Positions 959 to 36,666 of a stretch of 42,993 bases of DNA are shown here, in pieces (the first letter of the stretch is position 1; each line of letters opens with the position of its first letter). The DNA is from a virus (lineage: Duplodnaviria > Caudoviricetes). The DNA lies in IMG/VR virus record IMGVR_UViG_3300033168_000003, positions 1 through 42,993 of that record. The stretch is one strand, 5' to 3'. A program made the position numbers and the translations under genes. Under the pieces are notes generated by a model. That model ran no database searches and had not been told where the DNA came from. It worked only from the letters and a program-made list of their open reading frames with translations.

Positions 959-1555
959 CTAGGCCTGCTGCGCGGCGAACGCCGCACGGGCCACGGGGTG
1001 AGTAGCGTCGAGTTCCTGCCCGTCGTGGTGCTTCCCGCTCGGGTCGTACAGCACCCGGACAGCAGCGACACCGGAGCCTCGCGGGGCGACTGGCGCGACC
1101 GCTACCCCGTCCACGAACAACACAAAGTCGTCGTGTTTGAAGGTCTCGATGTCCGTTATCGGAGTCGGATAGTGATGGAGGCCGGCGGCCTTGGGTAGCA
1201 CCCCAGTGTGAAGTCCTGCTGGGAGCGGAACGGACGCGTTCCAGAACGAGTCTGTCCAGGCTGCGACGCTGGCCGCGTCGGTAATCGGCGTGTGCAGGAT
1301 GGCGACGTCTGCCGCGGTCATACCCAGCTCGGAGACGTAGGCAGGCTCGGTCAGTGGGAACCCTGCGACCAGGCGCTCAGCGACTAGCCTGAGCCGCTCG
1401 ACCTTCGCCGGGTCGGCGCAGAACTGTGCCGACCACTCGATGCCGGCGAGGTTCTTGACCATGAACCAGCCGGTGGAGTCCCGCAGCCACGCGCCGCCGC
1501 CGTGGTGGCACTGAACTGCTACCAGGGTCATCCCTGGTGGTATCTTAGTAGTCAT
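959..1555 (-). CDS. C-terminal part of split DUF6424-like protein
   Basis: QCHHGGGAWLRDSTGWFMVKNLAGIEWSAQFCADPAKV...WTDSFWNASVPLP...HHYPTPITDI resembles DUF6424 as I recall it. Possible starts are ATG 1555 (GAGGCAGG upstream) or ATG 1531. Confidence 0.65.
   Translation of the reverse strand: MTTKIPPGMTLVAVQCHHGGGAWLRDSTGWFMVKNLAGIEWSAQFCADPAKVERLRLVAERLVAGFPLTEPAYVSELGMTAADVAILHTPITDAASVAAWTDSFWNASVPLPAGLHTGVLPKAAGLHHYPTPITDIETFKHDDFVLFVDGVAVAPVAPRGSGVAAVRVLYDPSGKHHDGQELDATHPVARAAFAAQQA
1538..1546 (+). promoter_or_regulatory. Extended -10 element (TGgTATCTT) of putative leaderless promoter for HNH gene
   Basis: TGnTAnnnT located 7 nt before the ATG at 1554, with no SD; typical actinobacterial leaderless layout. 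Confidence 0.55.
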
Positions 1556-2045
1556 GAGAACCTGCCTCGATTGCGGAGTCACGTTGACTGGTCACGGCGA
1601 CGCCGTGCGATGCAAGCCCCATTCCATTACCTACTGGCACCGGCAACGGCGAGGCCAAGACGCTTTGCTTGGGTCGGTCTCGCCGAAGGGTTACCGGCGG
1701 ATCAAGGTGAACGGACGGCTAGTGATGGAGCACCGCTACGTCATGGAACGGCACCTCGGCCGCGCCTTGGGTCGCAGCGAGGTTGTGCACCACATCAACG
1801 GCGACCGGCTCGACAACAGGGTGGAGAACCTTGAGGTCAAGGGCAGTCAGGGGGAACACCTGCTCGAGCACCAGCCCAAGGCGCAGTGGCTCTGCCTCAG
1901 GTGCGGAGAGCCGTTTGCGTCGAAGCCGTCAGCTCGTCAGAAGTTCTGCTCGAGGTTGTGCTACCACAAGGCGCATCAGGGAGTGGCACCTGCCGGCGCA
2001 TCATTCGGGGAACCCGCCGCGGTCATCAGCCCGCCGCCGAAGTAG
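1554..2045 (+). CDS. HNH homing endonuclease with Zn-finger modules, antisense inside a split gene
   Basis: GYRRI...EHRYVMERHLGR.L...EVVHHINGDRLDNRVENL is an HNH_3-type motif; CxxC/FCSRLC modules flank it. Confidence 0.9.
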   Translation: MRTCLDCGVTLTGHGDAVRCKPHSITYWHRQRRGQDALLGSVSPKGYRRIKVNGRLVMEHRYVMERHLGRALGRSEVVHHINGDRLDNRVENLEVKGSQGEHLLEHQPKAQWLCLRCGEPFASKPSARQKFCSRLCYHKAHQGVAPAGASFGEPAAVISPPPK

Positions 2046-2194
2046 AAGTCCGGGCCGGCCAGCCCTAGCGCCGTGATCATGTGCTTGCGGCTGCGGCCGT
2101 ACAGGGGTGTGTCGGCCCGTTTCGGGTGGTCCCCGATGTTGATGGTCCAGCCGTGGTCCTCGGCCTCAGTGTGCGTGCCCTTCATGGTCGTCAC
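1976..2194 (-). CDS. N-terminal part of split DUF6424-like protein
   Basis: GTG start overlaps the peptidase stop (GTGA); GTHTEAEDHGWTINIGDHPKRADTPLY..SRK; same reading frame as 959..1555. Confidence 0.65.
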   Translation of the reverse strand: MTTMKGTHTEAEDHGWTINIGDHPKRADTPLYGRSRKHMITALGLAGPDFYFGGGLMTAAGSPNDAPAGATP

Positions 2195-4218
2195 AGTTCC
2201 CACGCCTTTCGGAGGAGTCCGTTCACGACTGAGCGGAGGCTGTGGCGGCGTCGGTGCGCCCGGTCGGTCGCCTCGGCCCACACGTCGTCATCGAGGATGA
2301 CCGCGTGCGGGTGCGGCGTGGGAGGCTGGACAGGTGACGGAGCAGGCGGTGCAGGCGGTGCAGGAGGCGATGGAGGCACGGTTGTTGGCGCGGGACCGGG
2401 AGGACTGGGAGGCACGGGAGCGGGCGGCTCGGGCGGAGTAGGAGCGGGCGGAGCGGGCGGCGCGACAGCGACCGGGAACGGCCGGCCCGTCAGGCTCGTG
2501 AACGCTGCGGCGAACCCAGCGAGGTCCAGGTGGTCCCGCAAGCCGGGGTTCTCGACCTGCGCCTTCGTCAGGATGAACCACGCTTCCTCGACCTGAGCGC
2601 TGACGAACGCGGGGGTCATCTCGACCACGGCACCCCACGAGACGGTCTCGTCCTTGGCGTCCTGCTGGTAGCCGACCCACGCCGTTGCGTGCCCGCCTAC
2701 GACAGGTGAGGCCGGGTCGACGTCCCATACCTGCGCACCGAGCTGCGACTGCTTGAGCGTCTCCCCGGTGACGATTGCCAAGCCGAGGTAGGTCGCGGCC
2801 TGCACGACATCGGGCCGGGTGAAGTCGACGGCGGCGAACGCGAGGATGTCGCCTTGCTTCGTGAGGTAGGCCAGGAAGTCCTGGACGAGCATCCCGCCGT
2901 CGTCCGCGCTCCCCGCGCCGTGCTGCGCGCTGGCGGGGTCGAACTGGGGGTTCTGCGTCTTGTACAGGTTGATGATCTCGGCGTCGGTCCAGCCCGGCCG
3001 GGTGACACCGACCACGGCCATGATGGTCTGCAGCGCATGGTCGGCGGCGGCGACGACGCAGTTGTGGGTTACGATGCCGTTAGCGACGAACCATCGCGTC
3101 GCCGTAGAGAGGTCGTAGACATGCCCGTCGTACCACTCGCGGTGAACACCGACGATGCGATCCGGCGCTACGAGGCCGGGGAAGCGCTCCTCGAGATCTC
3201 CGGCGAGATGGGGGTCAGTCTGGGCACCCTCACTCGACGGATGAACGCTGCTGGCCACAAGCGACGTTCGATCGCGGAGTCCACTGCCATAGCCGTTCGC
3301 CGGCGCACTCCCGACCTGACGCCGTTCTTTGACCGCTACGTTGCCGGGGAGGCGTCCTACGTCGACTTGGCTCGCGAGGCTGGAGTGGGCCAACCGCTGT
3401 TCCGAAGACTGCTTGTCGAAGCTGGCATCGCTGTCCGGTCGCAGCCCGTCAGCCTCAGCATGAGGTACGCACAAATGACGGTCTCGGAACGGCACGAGCG
3501 GGTTGCTGCCGCTCATGACGCGACCCGAGGCAAACCTGCCTCTCCGTTTCGCTTGGAACATCGCGCACAGACCATGGAACGCACCCTGCAGCTTTCCAGC
3601 CGGCAGGATCTCATCCTCGCCGTTTGGCTTGCGCAGCGCGGGATCGACTTCACGCTGCAGAAGGCTGTTGGGCCGTACAACGTCGACATCGCCGTCCATG
3701 AACCGGCCGTCGCCGTGGAAGTCGACGGCGCCTACCACCTGCCGGAACTTCGCCAGCTCTCCCGATCCCGCAGTACCCCGGAGCAGCGCCGCGAACTTCT
3801 CCTCGACCGGGGCTATCGCTTCATCTCCGTCCTGACCAAAGATGCCGGTGGCGACTTCCTCAGTCCACTCAGCGCCGACCGCGTAGTCACCCTGCTTGAG
3901 GAAGCGCGCACGGATGAACCCTCGTGGGGTCAGTACTGCGTGATTGGGCGTAACGGTGAGGTGTCTCCCGGAGGCAAACCGTAGAGCCACGACAGGGCCG
4001 TCGTACTTCACTCGATAGCCGGCCTCGACGTTCGCTGCCCCCACTTCGGTGCCTTCGGTGAGGCACGTCCCGTACTTGTCGTTCAGGTCCATCGGCCACG
4101 ACAGTCCCGGTGCGGGGTCCGCGATGGGGTGGTCCGGGACAGCGGTGAGGAACGCCGCGAGGTCCAGGCGGGCTTTGTGGAGCTGCGCGGGCCTACGCCC
4201 GAGCATCCGGTCAGTCAT
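2191..4218 (-). CDS. Papain-like cysteine peptidase containing an intein, with Pro-rich linker and RHH-like C-terminal tail (675-aa precursor, ~340 aa spliced)
   Basis: Start ATG 4218 with GGAGA SD and TGATG coupling to the holin. Exteins join to LNDKYGT-CVVAA; GGHATAWVGY and SWG motifs match a papain-like Cys/His arrangement. Confidence 0.8.
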   Translation of the reverse strand: MTDRMLGRRPAQLHKARLDLAAFLTAVPDHPIADPAPGLSWPMDLNDKYGTCLTEGTEVGAANVEAGYRVKYDGPVVALRFASGRHLTVTPNHAVLTPRGFIRARFLKQGDYAVGAEWTEEVATGIFGQDGDEAIAPVEEKFAALLRGTAGSGELAKFRQVVGAVDFHGDGRFMDGDVDVVRPNSLLQREVDPALRKPNGEDEILPAGKLQGAFHGLCAMFQAKRRGRFASGRVMSGSNPLVPFRDRHLCVPHAEADGLRPDSDASFDKQSSEQRLAHSSLASQVDVGRLPGNVAVKERRQVGSAPANGYGSGLRDRTSLVASSVHPSSEGAQTDPHLAGDLEERFPGLVAPDRIVGVHREWYDGHVYDLSTATRWFVANGIVTHNCVVAAADHALQTIMAVVGVTRPGWTDAEIINLYKTQNPQFDPASAQHGAGSADDGGMLVQDFLAYLTKQGDILAFAAVDFTRPDVVQAATYLGLAIVTGETLKQSQLGAQVWDVDPASPVVGGHATAWVGYQQDAKDETVSWGAVVEMTPAFVSAQVEEAWFILTKAQVENPGLRDHLDLAGFAAAFTSLTGRPFPVAVAPPAPPAPTPPEPPAPVPPSPPGPAPTTVPPSPPAPPAPPAPSPVQPPTPHPHAVILDDDVWAEATDRAHRRRHSLRSVVNGLLRKAWEL
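2316..2341 (+). repeat. 26-bp direct repeat, copy 1 (GCGTGGGAGGCTGGACAGGTGACGGA)
   Basis: Identical to 4310..4335; encodes SPVQPPT in both the peptidase and the holin. Confidence 0.9.
3061..4065 (-). mobile_element. Class 1 intein, 335 aa
   Basis: Block A CLTEGTEV, block B LTVTPNHAVLT, block F YDGHVYDLST, block G FVANGIVTHN followed by Cys+1; no LAGLIDADG motif in frame. Confidence 0.93.
3121..3984 (+). CDS. Vsr/DUF559-like endonuclease with tandem HTH-like modules, encoded antisense within the intein (287 aa)
   Basis: AGAGAGG SD then ATG 3121. Two RYxAGE...G..RS HTH-like repeats; QKAVGPYNVDIA...VAVEVDGAYH...RELLLDRGYRFI nuclease motifs. Confidence 0.85.
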   Translation: MPVVPLAVNTDDAIRRYEAGEALLEISGEMGVSLGTLTRRMNAAGHKRRSIAESTAIAVRRRTPDLTPFFDRYVAGEASYVDLAREAGVGQPLFRRLLVEAGIAVRSQPVSLSMRYAQMTVSERHERVAAAHDATRGKPASPFRLEHRAQTMERTLQLSSRQDLILAVWLAQRGIDFTLQKAVGPYNVDIAVHEPAVAVEVDGAYHLPELRQLSRSRSTPEQRRELLLDRGYRFISVLTKDAGGDFLSPLSADRVVTLLEEARTDEPSWGQYCVIGRNGEVSPGGKP

Positions 4219-4655
4219 CAGCTGGTCTCCTGGGCGGGGAAAGGGACGGGGGTGACCTGGACGCTTCCGCCGGCCGCGGGGGGCGTGTCCGGGTAGGCGT
4301 CGGCCGGGAGCGTGGGAGGCTGGACAGGTGACGGAACCGGTGTCGGAGTGGGTGCAGGAGCAGGGATGGGCGTGGGAGCCGGGTCTTCGGGACGAGCAGC
4401 GCTGATCTGTTCCGGTAGCCCTGATGGGTCTGCGAGGTCGGGCCGGGATGTGTGCGGCGCCACGTAGCCGCTGACGCCCTGAACGACGACCAGTAGGGCC
4501 GCGCCCAACGCCGCGAGGCTGATGGTTTCCTGCGCTGTTGGGTGGAACCACCCGAACGCCAGGACGGTGCGGTAGGCGGCTGCCCCGAGGGTGCCGGTGA
4601 GGGCGGTCGCGACGAGCGGGACCGCGACCTTCAGTTCGACGTTGCCGAGTTTCAT
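4218..4655 (-). CDS. Putative holin with Pro-rich C-terminal tail
   Basis: Two hydrophobic segments followed by GYVAPHT; ATGA-coupled to the endolysin. Confidence 0.7.
   Translation of the reverse strand: MKLGNVELKVAVPLVATALTGTLGAAAYRTVLAFGWFHPTAQETISLAALGAALLVVVQGVSGYVAPHTSRPDLADPSGLPEQISAARPEDPAPTPIPAPAPTPTPVPSPVQPPTLPADAYPDTPPAAGGSVQVTPVPFPAQETS
4310..4335 (+). repeat. 26-bp direct repeat, copy 2
   Basis: Identical to 2316..2341. Confidence 0.9.
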
Positions 4656-5629
4656 CGGGTTGCCTCCGGGAGAGCGGCGAGCGCCGCAGAGTTGGGCAGG
4701 ACACGGACGGCGGCGCGTTGTAGGCCCCGGGCGTGCCACTCCGGGCTGGTGACGTGCCGGATCTCCCACACGGCGGGCTGGCCGGCGAACTGCGCGAGGA
4801 ACGCCACAGACGGCGCCGCGGGAGGCGGTGGGGCGTGCGGTGTAGGTGGCTTGGGGGCGTACAGGACCGCACCAGTCTCCAGACCAAAGAGTCCGTCAAC
4901 GACGAGCCCGTGCGCGGCTTGGAACCGCTTCACCGCGGCTTCAGTCCCCGGTCCGAAGTAGCCATCCGCGGGCGTGACTCCGAGCGCGGTCTGCATGATG
5001 CGGGTGTGTACGCCCTGGCACCACAGTTGCAGCGGGAGCGTCTCCGGGTGGTAGGTGCCCATCGGCGGGCCGGCAGGCGCACCGCCAGGGCCGAGGAGCA
5101 GCATGAAGCGGTCCCACGGGAAGTTCGGCCCGGGGTCGGTGTGGTCGCTCTGGTGGAACGCGTTGCTGACGTCCACGTGTCCGCGCTGACCGCCGTGGTT
5201 GGCCCGCACCTCATCGACGGTGCAGCGGTGGATCGGGATGCCGTACCGGATCGCGTCAGCCTTGACCTCGGCTGCGACGCGGGCGACGGCCGGCCACACC
5301 TCCGGGCTGAGCCACTGGTCGCGGGTGTACCAGCTCTGACCGCAGATCTCGTAGCCCAAGGTGCGGATGTTCACGGGAGCGTGCCAGCAGATCATGTCGT
5401 CGGGGGCGCACCGCACCGACGTGGCGACGTCGCACACCACATGGGCACTACCGCCAGACGCCTGGCTCTTGAAGTAGTCGGCGGTCCCTACTGCCATGCC
5501 GGCCTGCGACGACCAGGACCACGGCACGTTGGACGGCTGGCCGGGGCAGGTCGCGTGGATCGTTTGCGCGAACGGCGGGAGGTTGCTGCCCGAACTGAAG
5601 TGGGCAGGCGGGCCGAGGTAGATGCTCAT
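4652..5629 (-). CDS. Endolysin: N-acetylmuramoyl-L-alanine amidase (Amidase_2) plus peptidoglycan-binding domain
   Basis: IHAT, SAH, WHA..N..T.GYE, GH, HTDPG motifs; DGYFGPGTEAAVKRFQAAHGLVVDG (PG_binding_1). Confidence 0.92.
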   Translation of the reverse strand: MSIYLGPPAHFSSGSNLPPFAQTIHATCPGQPSNVPWSWSSQAGMAVGTADYFKSQASGGSAHVVCDVATSVRCAPDDMICWHAPVNIRTLGYEICGQSWYTRDQWLSPEVWPAVARVAAEVKADAIRYGIPIHRCTVDEVRANHGGQRGHVDVSNAFHQSDHTDPGPNFPWDRFMLLLGPGGAPAGPPMGTYHPETLPLQLWCQGVHTRIMQTALGVTPADGYFGPGTEAAVKRFQAAHGLVVDGLFGLETGAVLYAPKPPTPHAPPPPAAPSVAFLAQFAGQPAVWEIRHVTSPEWHARGLQRAAVRVLPNSAALAALPEATR

Positions 5630-35229: not shown

Positions 35230-35696
35230 GTCGTGTCCTGGGCGGCGCGCAGGAGGTGCGGGAGGGACCGCAACCGCTCGAGGTCGCAGAGAAGGTCGGC
35301 CTGCGCAGCCCACAGGTTGTCGGTCGGACCGTCCTCGCAGGCGACGCAGCGACCCCTGGGACGGAGCTGGGCGCAGTCGCACTCCCCGCCGCAGCACTCG
35401 TCGTGCCCGCTGATGGCACGGTGCCGGTCCAGGCGGGTGCTGGCGGATGCGAGGTCGTCCAGGAGCGCGGCGGTCTGCTCACTGTCGGCGTAGGCAGCAG
35501 CGATCAGGGCGATGATGGCTCGGTCGTTGTCCGAGGTGAAGCCGCGCCTGTGGGTTATTGACAGCATGGTGGACAGCGCCTCGGTGGTCTCCTGCCGGGT
35601 GTCGAGCCGGACGGCGATGTCGGTGAGGGTGTCCGCGACGCGCTGCCGGGCGTCAACGGACGCGACGGGTGGCGAGGGGGCGGGAAGGACAATCAC
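35226..35696 (-). CDS. Hypothetical protein
   Basis: 156 aa; GTGA overlap. Confidence 0.6.
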   Translation of the reverse strand: MIVLPAPSPPVASVDARQRVADTLTDIAVRLDTRQETTEALSTMLSITHRRGFTSDNDRAIIALIAAAYADSEQTAALLDDLASASTRLDRHRAISGHDECCGGECDCAQLRPRGRCVACEDGPTDNLWAAQADLLCDLERLRSLPHLLRAAQDTT

Positions 35697-36586
35697 GCGG
35701 TCACCTGCGCGGGCACGATCTCGCCGGCGCTGTCGCAGCGGTAGGCGACGCTCGGGAGCAGCCCGTCCTCACCGATGTAGCCGACGGTGATGCGGTCGCG
35801 GCCGCCGTCGTACCAGCGCAGCTCGACAATCCCCCAGTCCCCGGCGGTCGCGGTCCCGTCGCGCCCGGCGGTCGCGGTCCCGTCGCGCCCGGCGGTCGCG
35901 GTCCCGTCGTGCCCGGCGGTCGCGGTCCCGCTGTCCCCGGCGGTCGCGGTCCCGTCGCGCCCGGCGGTCGCGGTCCCGTCGTGCCCGGCGGTCGCGGTCC
36001 CGTCGCGCCCGGCGGTCGCGGTCCCGTCGCGCCCGGCGGTCGCGGTCCCGTCGCGCCCGGCGGTCGCGGTCCCGTCGTGCCCGGCGGTCGCGGTCCCGCT
36101 GCGCCCGGCGGTCGCGGTCCCGCTGTCCCCGGCGGTCGCGGTCCCGCTGTCCCCGGCGGTCGCGGTCCCGCTGTGCCCGGCGGTCGCGGTCCCGCTGTGC
36201 CCGGCGGTCGCGGTCCCGCCAATCACAGCCCGGTTCGGCTCGCCGTGCACCGCCAGGTACGCCGTGGCGCTCATCCGGTCACCGGAGAACACGACCACAC
36301 CTCGGGGGAACTTCACCTTGCCCGTGAGGTCAATCACGTCGGCTGCCGCTACCTCCACGACTTGCCAGCGGGCATCCGTCTCCCACCGGAACAGACCGCC
36401 GGCGCCTTCACCCCACAGGGCGCCGTGGAGGCCGTGGCCGCACTCCGCGGTCGGTTGCCAGTCGGGGCACTCAACCGGGCCGGACTCAGGCCACCGGAAG
36501 TTGTTCCTGCTGGTGCCGTCGGCGTTGCTGGTCCGCAGAATCAGGACGTGGCCGTCTGCGGGGATGGTTGGGGCTTTGCTGGTCAT
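35693..36586 (-). CDS. Phage protein with 16 GTATAGxx octapeptide repeats
   Basis: N-terminal F.WP..G.V.CPDW...CG.GLHG..WG.G...KVKF; C-terminal GYIGEDGL.P...Y; AGGA SD. Confidence 0.85.
   Translation of the reverse strand: MTSKAPTIPADGHVLILRTSNADGTSRNNFRWPESGPVECPDWQPTAECGHGLHGALWGEGAGGLFRWETDARWQVVEVAAADVIDLTGKVKFPRGVVVFSGDRMSATAYLAVHGEPNRAVIGGTATAGHSGTATAGHSGTATAGDSGTATAGDSGTATAGRSGTATAGHDGTATAGRDGTATAGRDGTATAGRDGTATAGHDGTATAGRDGTATAGDSGTATAGHDGTATAGRDGTATAGRDGTATAGDWGIVELRWYDGGRDRITVGYIGEDGLLPSVAYRCDSAGEIVPAQVTA
35840..36217. repeat. 24-bp coding tandem repeat, 16 copies
   Basis: Invariant core CCGGCGGTCGCGGTCCC plus two variable codons per unit. Confidence 0.95.
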
Positions 36587-36666
36587 GTGGCTTCCTGTCG
36601 GTAGGGCGTACCTTTGGGTGGTCGGTAGGCCGCTCGTCCCATAGCCGGGGCGGGCGGCGCCGTCGT

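Follow-up and report, generated by a model that had tools for sequence, protein, structure and literature searches.

A phage peptidase intein whose opposite strand probably encodes a separate Vsr/DUF559-like nuclease

IMG/VR record IMGVR_UViG_3300033168_000003 is a 42,993-nucleotide stretch of viral DNA (Duplodnaviria; Caudoviricetes), called the window here at its full length, and it is a high-GC temperate phage genome with terminase, portal, capsid, tape measure and integrase genes. One of its genes, for a papain-like cysteine peptidase, is interrupted by a class-1 intein, and the intein DNA appears to be coding on both strands: the best overall explanation, which we consider probable, is that one strand encodes the precursor of the host protease and the other a separate Vsr/DUF559-like nuclease. 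That the element is a homing intein is very probable. From the minus strand a protease precursor would be made, from which the intein is likely spliced out with restoration of the catalytic Cys; from the plus strand would come the nuclease, which would need an antisense transcript and would likely cut intein-free alleles, so that the element spreads by homing. The layout alone is of a known kind, and the added interest lies in the mutual constraint of the two genes, which seems to extend even across the predicted nuclease active site. Coordinates of the features are collected in Table 1.

As a preliminary description of the window had proposed, the intein frame is open throughout its 335 codons and carries the splicing motifs: C1, TPNH at residues 39-42, VYDL and a terminal HN followed by Cys, which supply the class-1 residues C1, T39/H42, D318, H334, N335 and +1 Cys. 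Pfam Intein_splicing matches at E 6.3e-10, above its cut-off, and 106 residues align with the HINT fold without the two internal islands described below. The Pfam intein model is covered only from position 30-33 onward, and about 30 residues after block A are missing. The block B His is residue 42, which puts it some 31 residues ahead of its place in the Mtu RecA intein (in the canonical class-1 inteins Mtu RecA, gp41-1 and PRP8 it lies at about 63-73), and it stands at residues 41-43 in 151 of 164 family members.

The antisense open reading frame (ORF) encodes 287 amino acids before a TAG and has exactly the codon register of the intein on the minus strand. It begins at the His codon of block F (intein residue 315) and extends to intein residue 28, so the overlap with blocks B and F that had been described is complete for block B and takes in only the first part of block F. 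Its product matches DUF559 in Pfam (E 2.1e-4; 21.6 bits against a cut-off of 20.6) and MTES_1575 at E 3.5e-5, below the cut-off; matches for its helix-turn-helix (HTH) repeats are weak, and the repeats resemble the CRISPR-repeat binding protein 2LVS. The predicted structure is confident (pLDDT, for predicted local distance difference test, 91) and has the Vsr-like catalytic fold of EDxHD homing endonucleases. Key residues of the Vsr/DUF559-like domain are D163, Q180, D189, E200, H206 and R223; among the EDxHD positions, D163 is Glu in 82% of the family, D189 and E200 are each present in 78/78 members, and H206 in 66/78. The intein segments that had been read as reverse complements of nuclease motifs are just that: DFHGDG (3706-3723) gives AVAVEV on the opposite strand, and DVDVV (3676-3690) gives YNVDI. 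Given the codon usage of the window, an antisense frame left open in this one sequence is nonetheless not beyond chance (P about 0.11), and the decision therefore had to come from relatives.

Relatives proved to be numerous. A single viral scan gave 582 stretches, 498 of them confirmed, and in 79 of the 80 returned for examination the opposite frame was open in register (the exception, L081, passed in a later extraction). Searching with intein patterns yielded 28, 30 and 2 loci, the window among them; these loci are not fully blind to the nuclease because they were confirmed against the whole intein. The antisense middle was open in all 43 complete loci found in this way, and among 16 incomplete ones that were dropped, 13 had the nuclease frame in the available part and 3 were other inteins. 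The 111 complete inteins reduced to 88 unique sequences and to 83 under 80% identity, and in the 21,685 middle codons of these 83 members there is not one TTA, CTA or TCA (the antisense stops), with about 483 expected. High GC had been thought to make the arrangement feasible, but the frame is equally open in the 24 members below 50% GC, where about 280 stops would be expected, and an enlarged non-redundant set spanning 40-70% GC shows it open in 163 of 164 members (the set lacks 24 of 159 new loci, and a few ends in it were cut wrongly); high GC is therefore not needed. Divergence follows the third codon position of the nuclease in the middle and that of the intein at the ends. Both expectations for relatives, an open antisense frame and purifying selection on it, thus held, and they support a separately translated antisense nuclease under purifying selection of its own. 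The nuclease ORF ends within intein codons 2-32 in 78/83 members and therefore usually overlaps block B. Every nuclease match in 159 further loci lies opposite an open intein-like frame, and 2,216 cluster representatives match the family profile at E 1e-30, a part of these being HTH-only. Judged from these sequences, the family is large and old. The DNA-binding part of the nuclease varies in frame on both strands: L018, L059, L127 and other short members (about 260-275 amino acids) have one HTH repeat fewer, and L115 is longer.

The start of the nuclease gene also appears to be written into the intein. Read on the opposite strand, block F (G-H-V-Y-D/N-L-Q/S) becomes GGAGGT or GAGGT, seven bases and ATG. 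A His precedes the block-F Val in 73/83 members and is encoded by CAT in 59 of those 73, against 144/362 in the exteins; the block-F Leu codon is CTC in 63/80, against 378/1457. A Shine-Dalgarno match of at least 5 bases accompanies 51/83 nuclease starts and 67/1030 internal antisense start codons (member L029 was mis-anchored in these counts). On this codon usage, a start codon and ribosome-binding signal are evidently conserved within block F.

The preliminary description had taken the insert for a shadow peptide left by the antisense gene. This holds for intein residues 133-230, where a column-wise test (intein residue given nuclease residue) found 0/98 columns constrained at z 4 and pLDDT is mostly below 50; it does not hold for two islands, residues 85-91 and 114-128, where z reaches 15. 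(The background for this test came from residues 140-265 and is partly circular there, and relatedness inflates z.) The third base of conserved nuclease codons is mostly free, the commonest base making up 32-77%, with exceptions at E200 (GAA 71/83), V199 (GTG 73/78) and A198 (GCC 75/78). We think it quite likely that both islands function in the intein frame. In solved inteins the motif (I/V)-E-D-V-x-x-G-D occupies the part that is missing here after block A; compared with Mtu RecA, gp41-1 and PRP8 it is absent from that place, and something similar follows block B instead, with P-T-R-I-E-D/E-V at 84-90 and F-H-G-D at 116-119 in the family. In canonical HINT domains, Gly5 contacts the I-E-D-V helix. 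A covariation analysis of 292 sequences (effective number 246; stability judged by half-sets) had pairs that are plausible for a HINT fold at its top, including G5-E88 at rank 5 (ranks 3-6 in four half-sets) and R18-D128 at rank 10 (half-sets 7-53). Ten of the top 40 pairs join residues 1-66 to the islands and one joins residues 1-66 to 133-180, the numbers of possible pairs being about equal. The nuclease Leu codon opposite residue 88 is CTC in 55/56 members with Gly5 and in 22/36 with Asp5. The islands could thus fold back onto the splicing domain and replace the roughly 30 missing residues, which would bind the fold needed for splicing to the very DNA that encodes the active site of the nuclease. 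Whether they take the place of the HINT element that is lacking, with its I-E-D-V helix and its G-D turn, is evenly balanced in our judgement, and we would give the same even chance to the fuller proposal of a rearranged HINT fold, its helix-and-turn element replaced by segments after block B and its block F serving as ribosome-binding site and start of the nuclease.

Several observations weigh against the picture of two functional, interlocked genes. The equivalent of I-Bth0305I D222 is not conserved at the aligned place, where the window has T-P-E-Q-R, and a search for a sigma-70 promoter for the antisense gene found none. One family member, L167, has an internal stop in the HTH region of the nuclease, possibly as a decaying copy. 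GH(I/V)YDL is present in the KlbA intein too (as GHIYDL), and the His may predate its use as a start; the evidence for the start signal is therefore the codon bias and not the His. The island sequences have no match to inteins in PDB or Pfam, it is covariation that places them in the fold, and the pairs 16-94, 16-91 and 3-87 were unstable in split halves. The G5-E88 coupling loses strength in members with codon 5 outside the nuclease ORF (P 0.002, n 76); it is absent in the 23 members with an ORF that ends after residue 19, and most of these carry both residues. Relatedness among the sequences inflates P and z values.

One alternative is a homing intein whose insert, from about residue 66 to 283, is a neutral shadow around a compact HINT domain, the frozen FHGD and I-E codons reflecting shared ancestry or a DNA or RNA element (a promoter, operator or nuclease binding site). 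An 11-13 nucleotide stretch that is near-invariant from 40 to 67% GC and a first base of codon 120 that is G in 93% despite varying residues would both fit this, as would the HINT alignment achieved without the islands and their lack of sequence matches to HINT domains. We regard it as unlikely, since third bases vary where both proteins permit (D119 is GAC in 117 and GAT in 53), replacements in the intein frame are conservative (H to Y through the rare ATA in 4/4 Ile cases; G to N), 60-nucleotide windows carry no folding signal (mean z -0.05 and -0.55), the predicted structure reaches pLDDT 77-90 in blocks 81-100 and 111-130, and the islands are coupled over long range to residues 5 and 18. 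Were the antisense protein instead a regulator that binds DNA, or a nuclease that nicks or acts against competitors to the benefit of the phage, in an intein that is inherited vertically and then lost, this would account for HTH repeats like those of 2LVS, for the unconserved EDxHD residue and for the many intein-bearing peptidases in clades of their own; vertical patterns have been reported for some Vsr-like groups (bioRxiv 10.1101/2025.01.02.630785). It is nevertheless improbable, given that the catalytic D and E are invariant, that the cassette sits at different conserved sites in unrelated hosts, that its presence is patchy among near-identical alleles, and that the nuclease matches in 159 further loci all lie opposite an open intein-like frame. 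That the antisense ORF merely fell out of GC-rich coding and is not expressed, as the chance probability for the window and the missing promoter might suggest, is scarcely credible: domain matches, a confident predicted fold, selection and start signals all speak for a gene, and the idea is already contradicted by the stop counts, low-GC members included, and by the codon-position divergence. The case for an antisense gene thus stands on homology, predicted fold and the family-wide lack of antisense stops.

For a homing element with an independent antisense nuclease, as originally suggested, support also comes from signs of mobility. The insertion is precisely absent from the homologues P0139-P0141, whose C-exteins are 87-89% identical to that of the window and which group with its extein in a quick tree (SH-aLRT 99); P0139 has the same junction residues. 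Sequencing run X2, which may be where the window comes from, contains a 1290-nucleotide contig at depth 93.9 that spans window positions 2977-4266 with the intein present, and a 285-nucleotide contig at depth 4.3 that joins 4107-4266 to 3060 and below; they differ by 1005 nucleotides, the length of the intein, which, with 41 letters left aside, points to its precise absence from the shorter one. Rough regular expressions sorted the junction motifs of 223 inteins into 152 MuF-like, 16 papain-like and 55 other. Runs X1 and X2 also hold a second, divergent phage contig at similar depth that matches the upstream gene (window 4282-4700) and seems to skip the whole peptidase gene, with a weak joint at 2361-4282 (20 letters on one side).

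Novelty of the layout does not stand. Gosselin, Arsenault and Gogarten (bioRxiv 10.1101/2025.01.02.630785) describe antisense VSR-like endonucleases in full inteins of actinobacteriophages, with non-canonical inteins in DNA polymerase, minor capsid, terminase and thymidylate synthase genes. In their account the second ORFs usually sit beyond the splicing domain, no recognisable structure is formed by the in-frame middle, and the elements are rare. As in those cases, the window has a contiguous intein with a Vsr-like ORF on the opposite strand, a long helical N-terminal part to the Vsr fold and resemblance to 1CW0 and 3R3P. It differs in that its host is a papain-like peptidase, outside the 19 hosts listed in the preprint, that its ORF spans block B to block F with a middle partly selected in the intein frame, and that the family is large (the 498 confirmed stretches of one scan). 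The main text of the preprint does not mention protease, peptidase, ribosome binding or start codon, and literature searches turned up neither a host of this class nor a family of this size, and neither a start signal in block F nor dual coding across the nuclease core. Inteins of Gordonia phage MuF proteins (Vivi2, Fosterous, Affeca, Angelicage) match both frames, the minor-capsid inteins at 33-35%, and are presumably the preprint's cases; in Vivi2 the corresponding ORF, which also begins at the block-F His, is not annotated. I-Bth0305I (PMC3239194) likewise combines N-terminal HTH-type repeats with a C-terminal Vsr-like domain, and equivalents of its D196, H213 and extra Glu are found here, but not that of D222, and the window nuclease is closer overall to DUF559 (3HRL). 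Such Vsr-like EDxHD enzymes are located either within group I introns or between the two halves of split inteins, where overlaps are short, 6-69 bp (PMC3239194; Dassa et al., PMC2677866), unlike the overlap with a contiguous intein from block B to F seen here. The ShiLan insertion with a hidden HNH endonuclease (PMC11855218) is also a homing insertion that leaves the host frame open and has its nuclease in another frame, but it was not identified as an intein.

The preprint expects antisense ORFs to decay quickly once homing stops, and the overlap of intein and nuclease offers a testable answer to why they escape the decay that it and the homing-cycle model predict. If the rearranged HINT fold is real, its replacement segments are encoded by codons that, reversed, form the nuclease active site, and the two genes would be genetically inseparable: catalytic-domain DNA could not be deleted without breaking splicing, and the usual decay to a mini-intein would therefore be blocked. 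Such a domain would also be of interest for intein engineering. The family probably offers a natural example in which the two strands of one set of codons specify two folded, likely enzymatic domains, an arrangement kept across hundreds of divergent phage sequences, and it makes sense-antisense co-coding measurable. DFHGDG in phage "minor capsid" and hypothetical proteins could serve as a marker of an unannotated nuclease gene on the opposite strand.

The host gene has the marks of a papain-like C1 peptidase, with a Cys/His pair in the motifs G-x-C, GGH and S/T-W-G. C52, H175 and W193 are invariant in 48 intein-free homologues, whose profile matches the cysteine protease PDB 3OIS at E 4.1e-5; C52, the +1 Cys, aligns with the Cys of G-S-C in 3OIS. 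Atlas neighbours include one cluster with Peptidase_C1 (PF00112) on 20% of members, and a Pfam search of P0139 and P0184 gave no match. The intein thus likely sits just before the catalytic Cys of a papain-like phage protease, which its splicing would restore.

Table 1. Features of the intein-bearing peptidase gene and its opposite strand (window positions)
Feature	Position	Strand	Basis or remark
Host gene, papain-like (C1-type) cysteine peptidase precursor (P0019)	2191..4218	-	675 aa including intein; Pro-rich tail
N-extein, 51 aa, C-terminal end N-D-K-Y-G-T	4066..4218	-	Junction shared with intein-free allele P0139
Class-1 intein, 335 aa	3061..4065	-	Motifs, Pfam, HINT alignment, predicted structure
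Block B TPNH, His = residue 42	3940..3951	-	Dual-coded (VIGR on + strand)
Island 1, intein 85-91, family T-R-I-E-D/E-V-F	3793..3813	-	Opposite nuclease E-L-L-L-D-R-G; E88 covaries with G5
Island 2, intein 114-131, DFHGDG...DVDVV	3673..3726	-	Opposite nuclease D189, E200; D128 covaries with R18
Shadow peptide, intein 133-230	3376..3669	-	No intein-frame constraint, predicted disordered; weak signal on to about residue 283
+1 Cys, splice nucleophile and likely catalytic peptidase Cys	3058..3060	-	Homologue invariance, 3OIS alignment
Likely catalytic His of peptidase (GGH)	2689..2691	-	Invariant H175; aligned to 3OIS GGHA
Antisense nuclease gene (287 aa) with two HTH repeats, a helical linker and a Vsr/DUF559-like domain	3121..3984	+	ORF, domain matches, predicted fold
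ATG start of nuclease	3121..3123	+	Reverse complement of block-F His codon CAT
Shine-Dalgarno-like GAGGT, 7 nt before ATG	3109..3113	+	Reverse complement of block-F D-L codons

Some hosts carry more than one intein. P0032 and L235 (L235/L236) each have two of the antisense-nuclease family, and P0022, a papain-like peptidase, has a second, canonical-looking intein near its C-terminus. A terminase-like gene in L139 (473-3361, plus strand) holds two inteins of canonical N-terminal length with antisense HNH_3 ORFs at 1127-1750 and 2375-3085 (both minus strand; E 8.4e-13 and 1.6e-8), an arrangement not among the four non-canonical types of the Gosselin preprint. In L113 (1370-2209, minus strand) a MuF-like gene also has two inteins. 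Opposite the first is an ORF that combines zinc-finger repeats with DUF559 (E 2.4e-13) and looks like another antisense Vsr-like nuclease of different build. Elsewhere in the window, just downstream of the intein-bearing gene, a free-standing HNH_3 ORF (1554-2045, plus strand; E 2e-10) lies opposite the late-gene strand, and a DUF6424 protein is encoded at 959-1582 (minus strand; E 1.6e-49). The ORF list shows a tandem repeat tract at 35669-36644, with a T-A-T-A-G repeat protein, and a simple-repeat stretch at the contig end (41934-42993).
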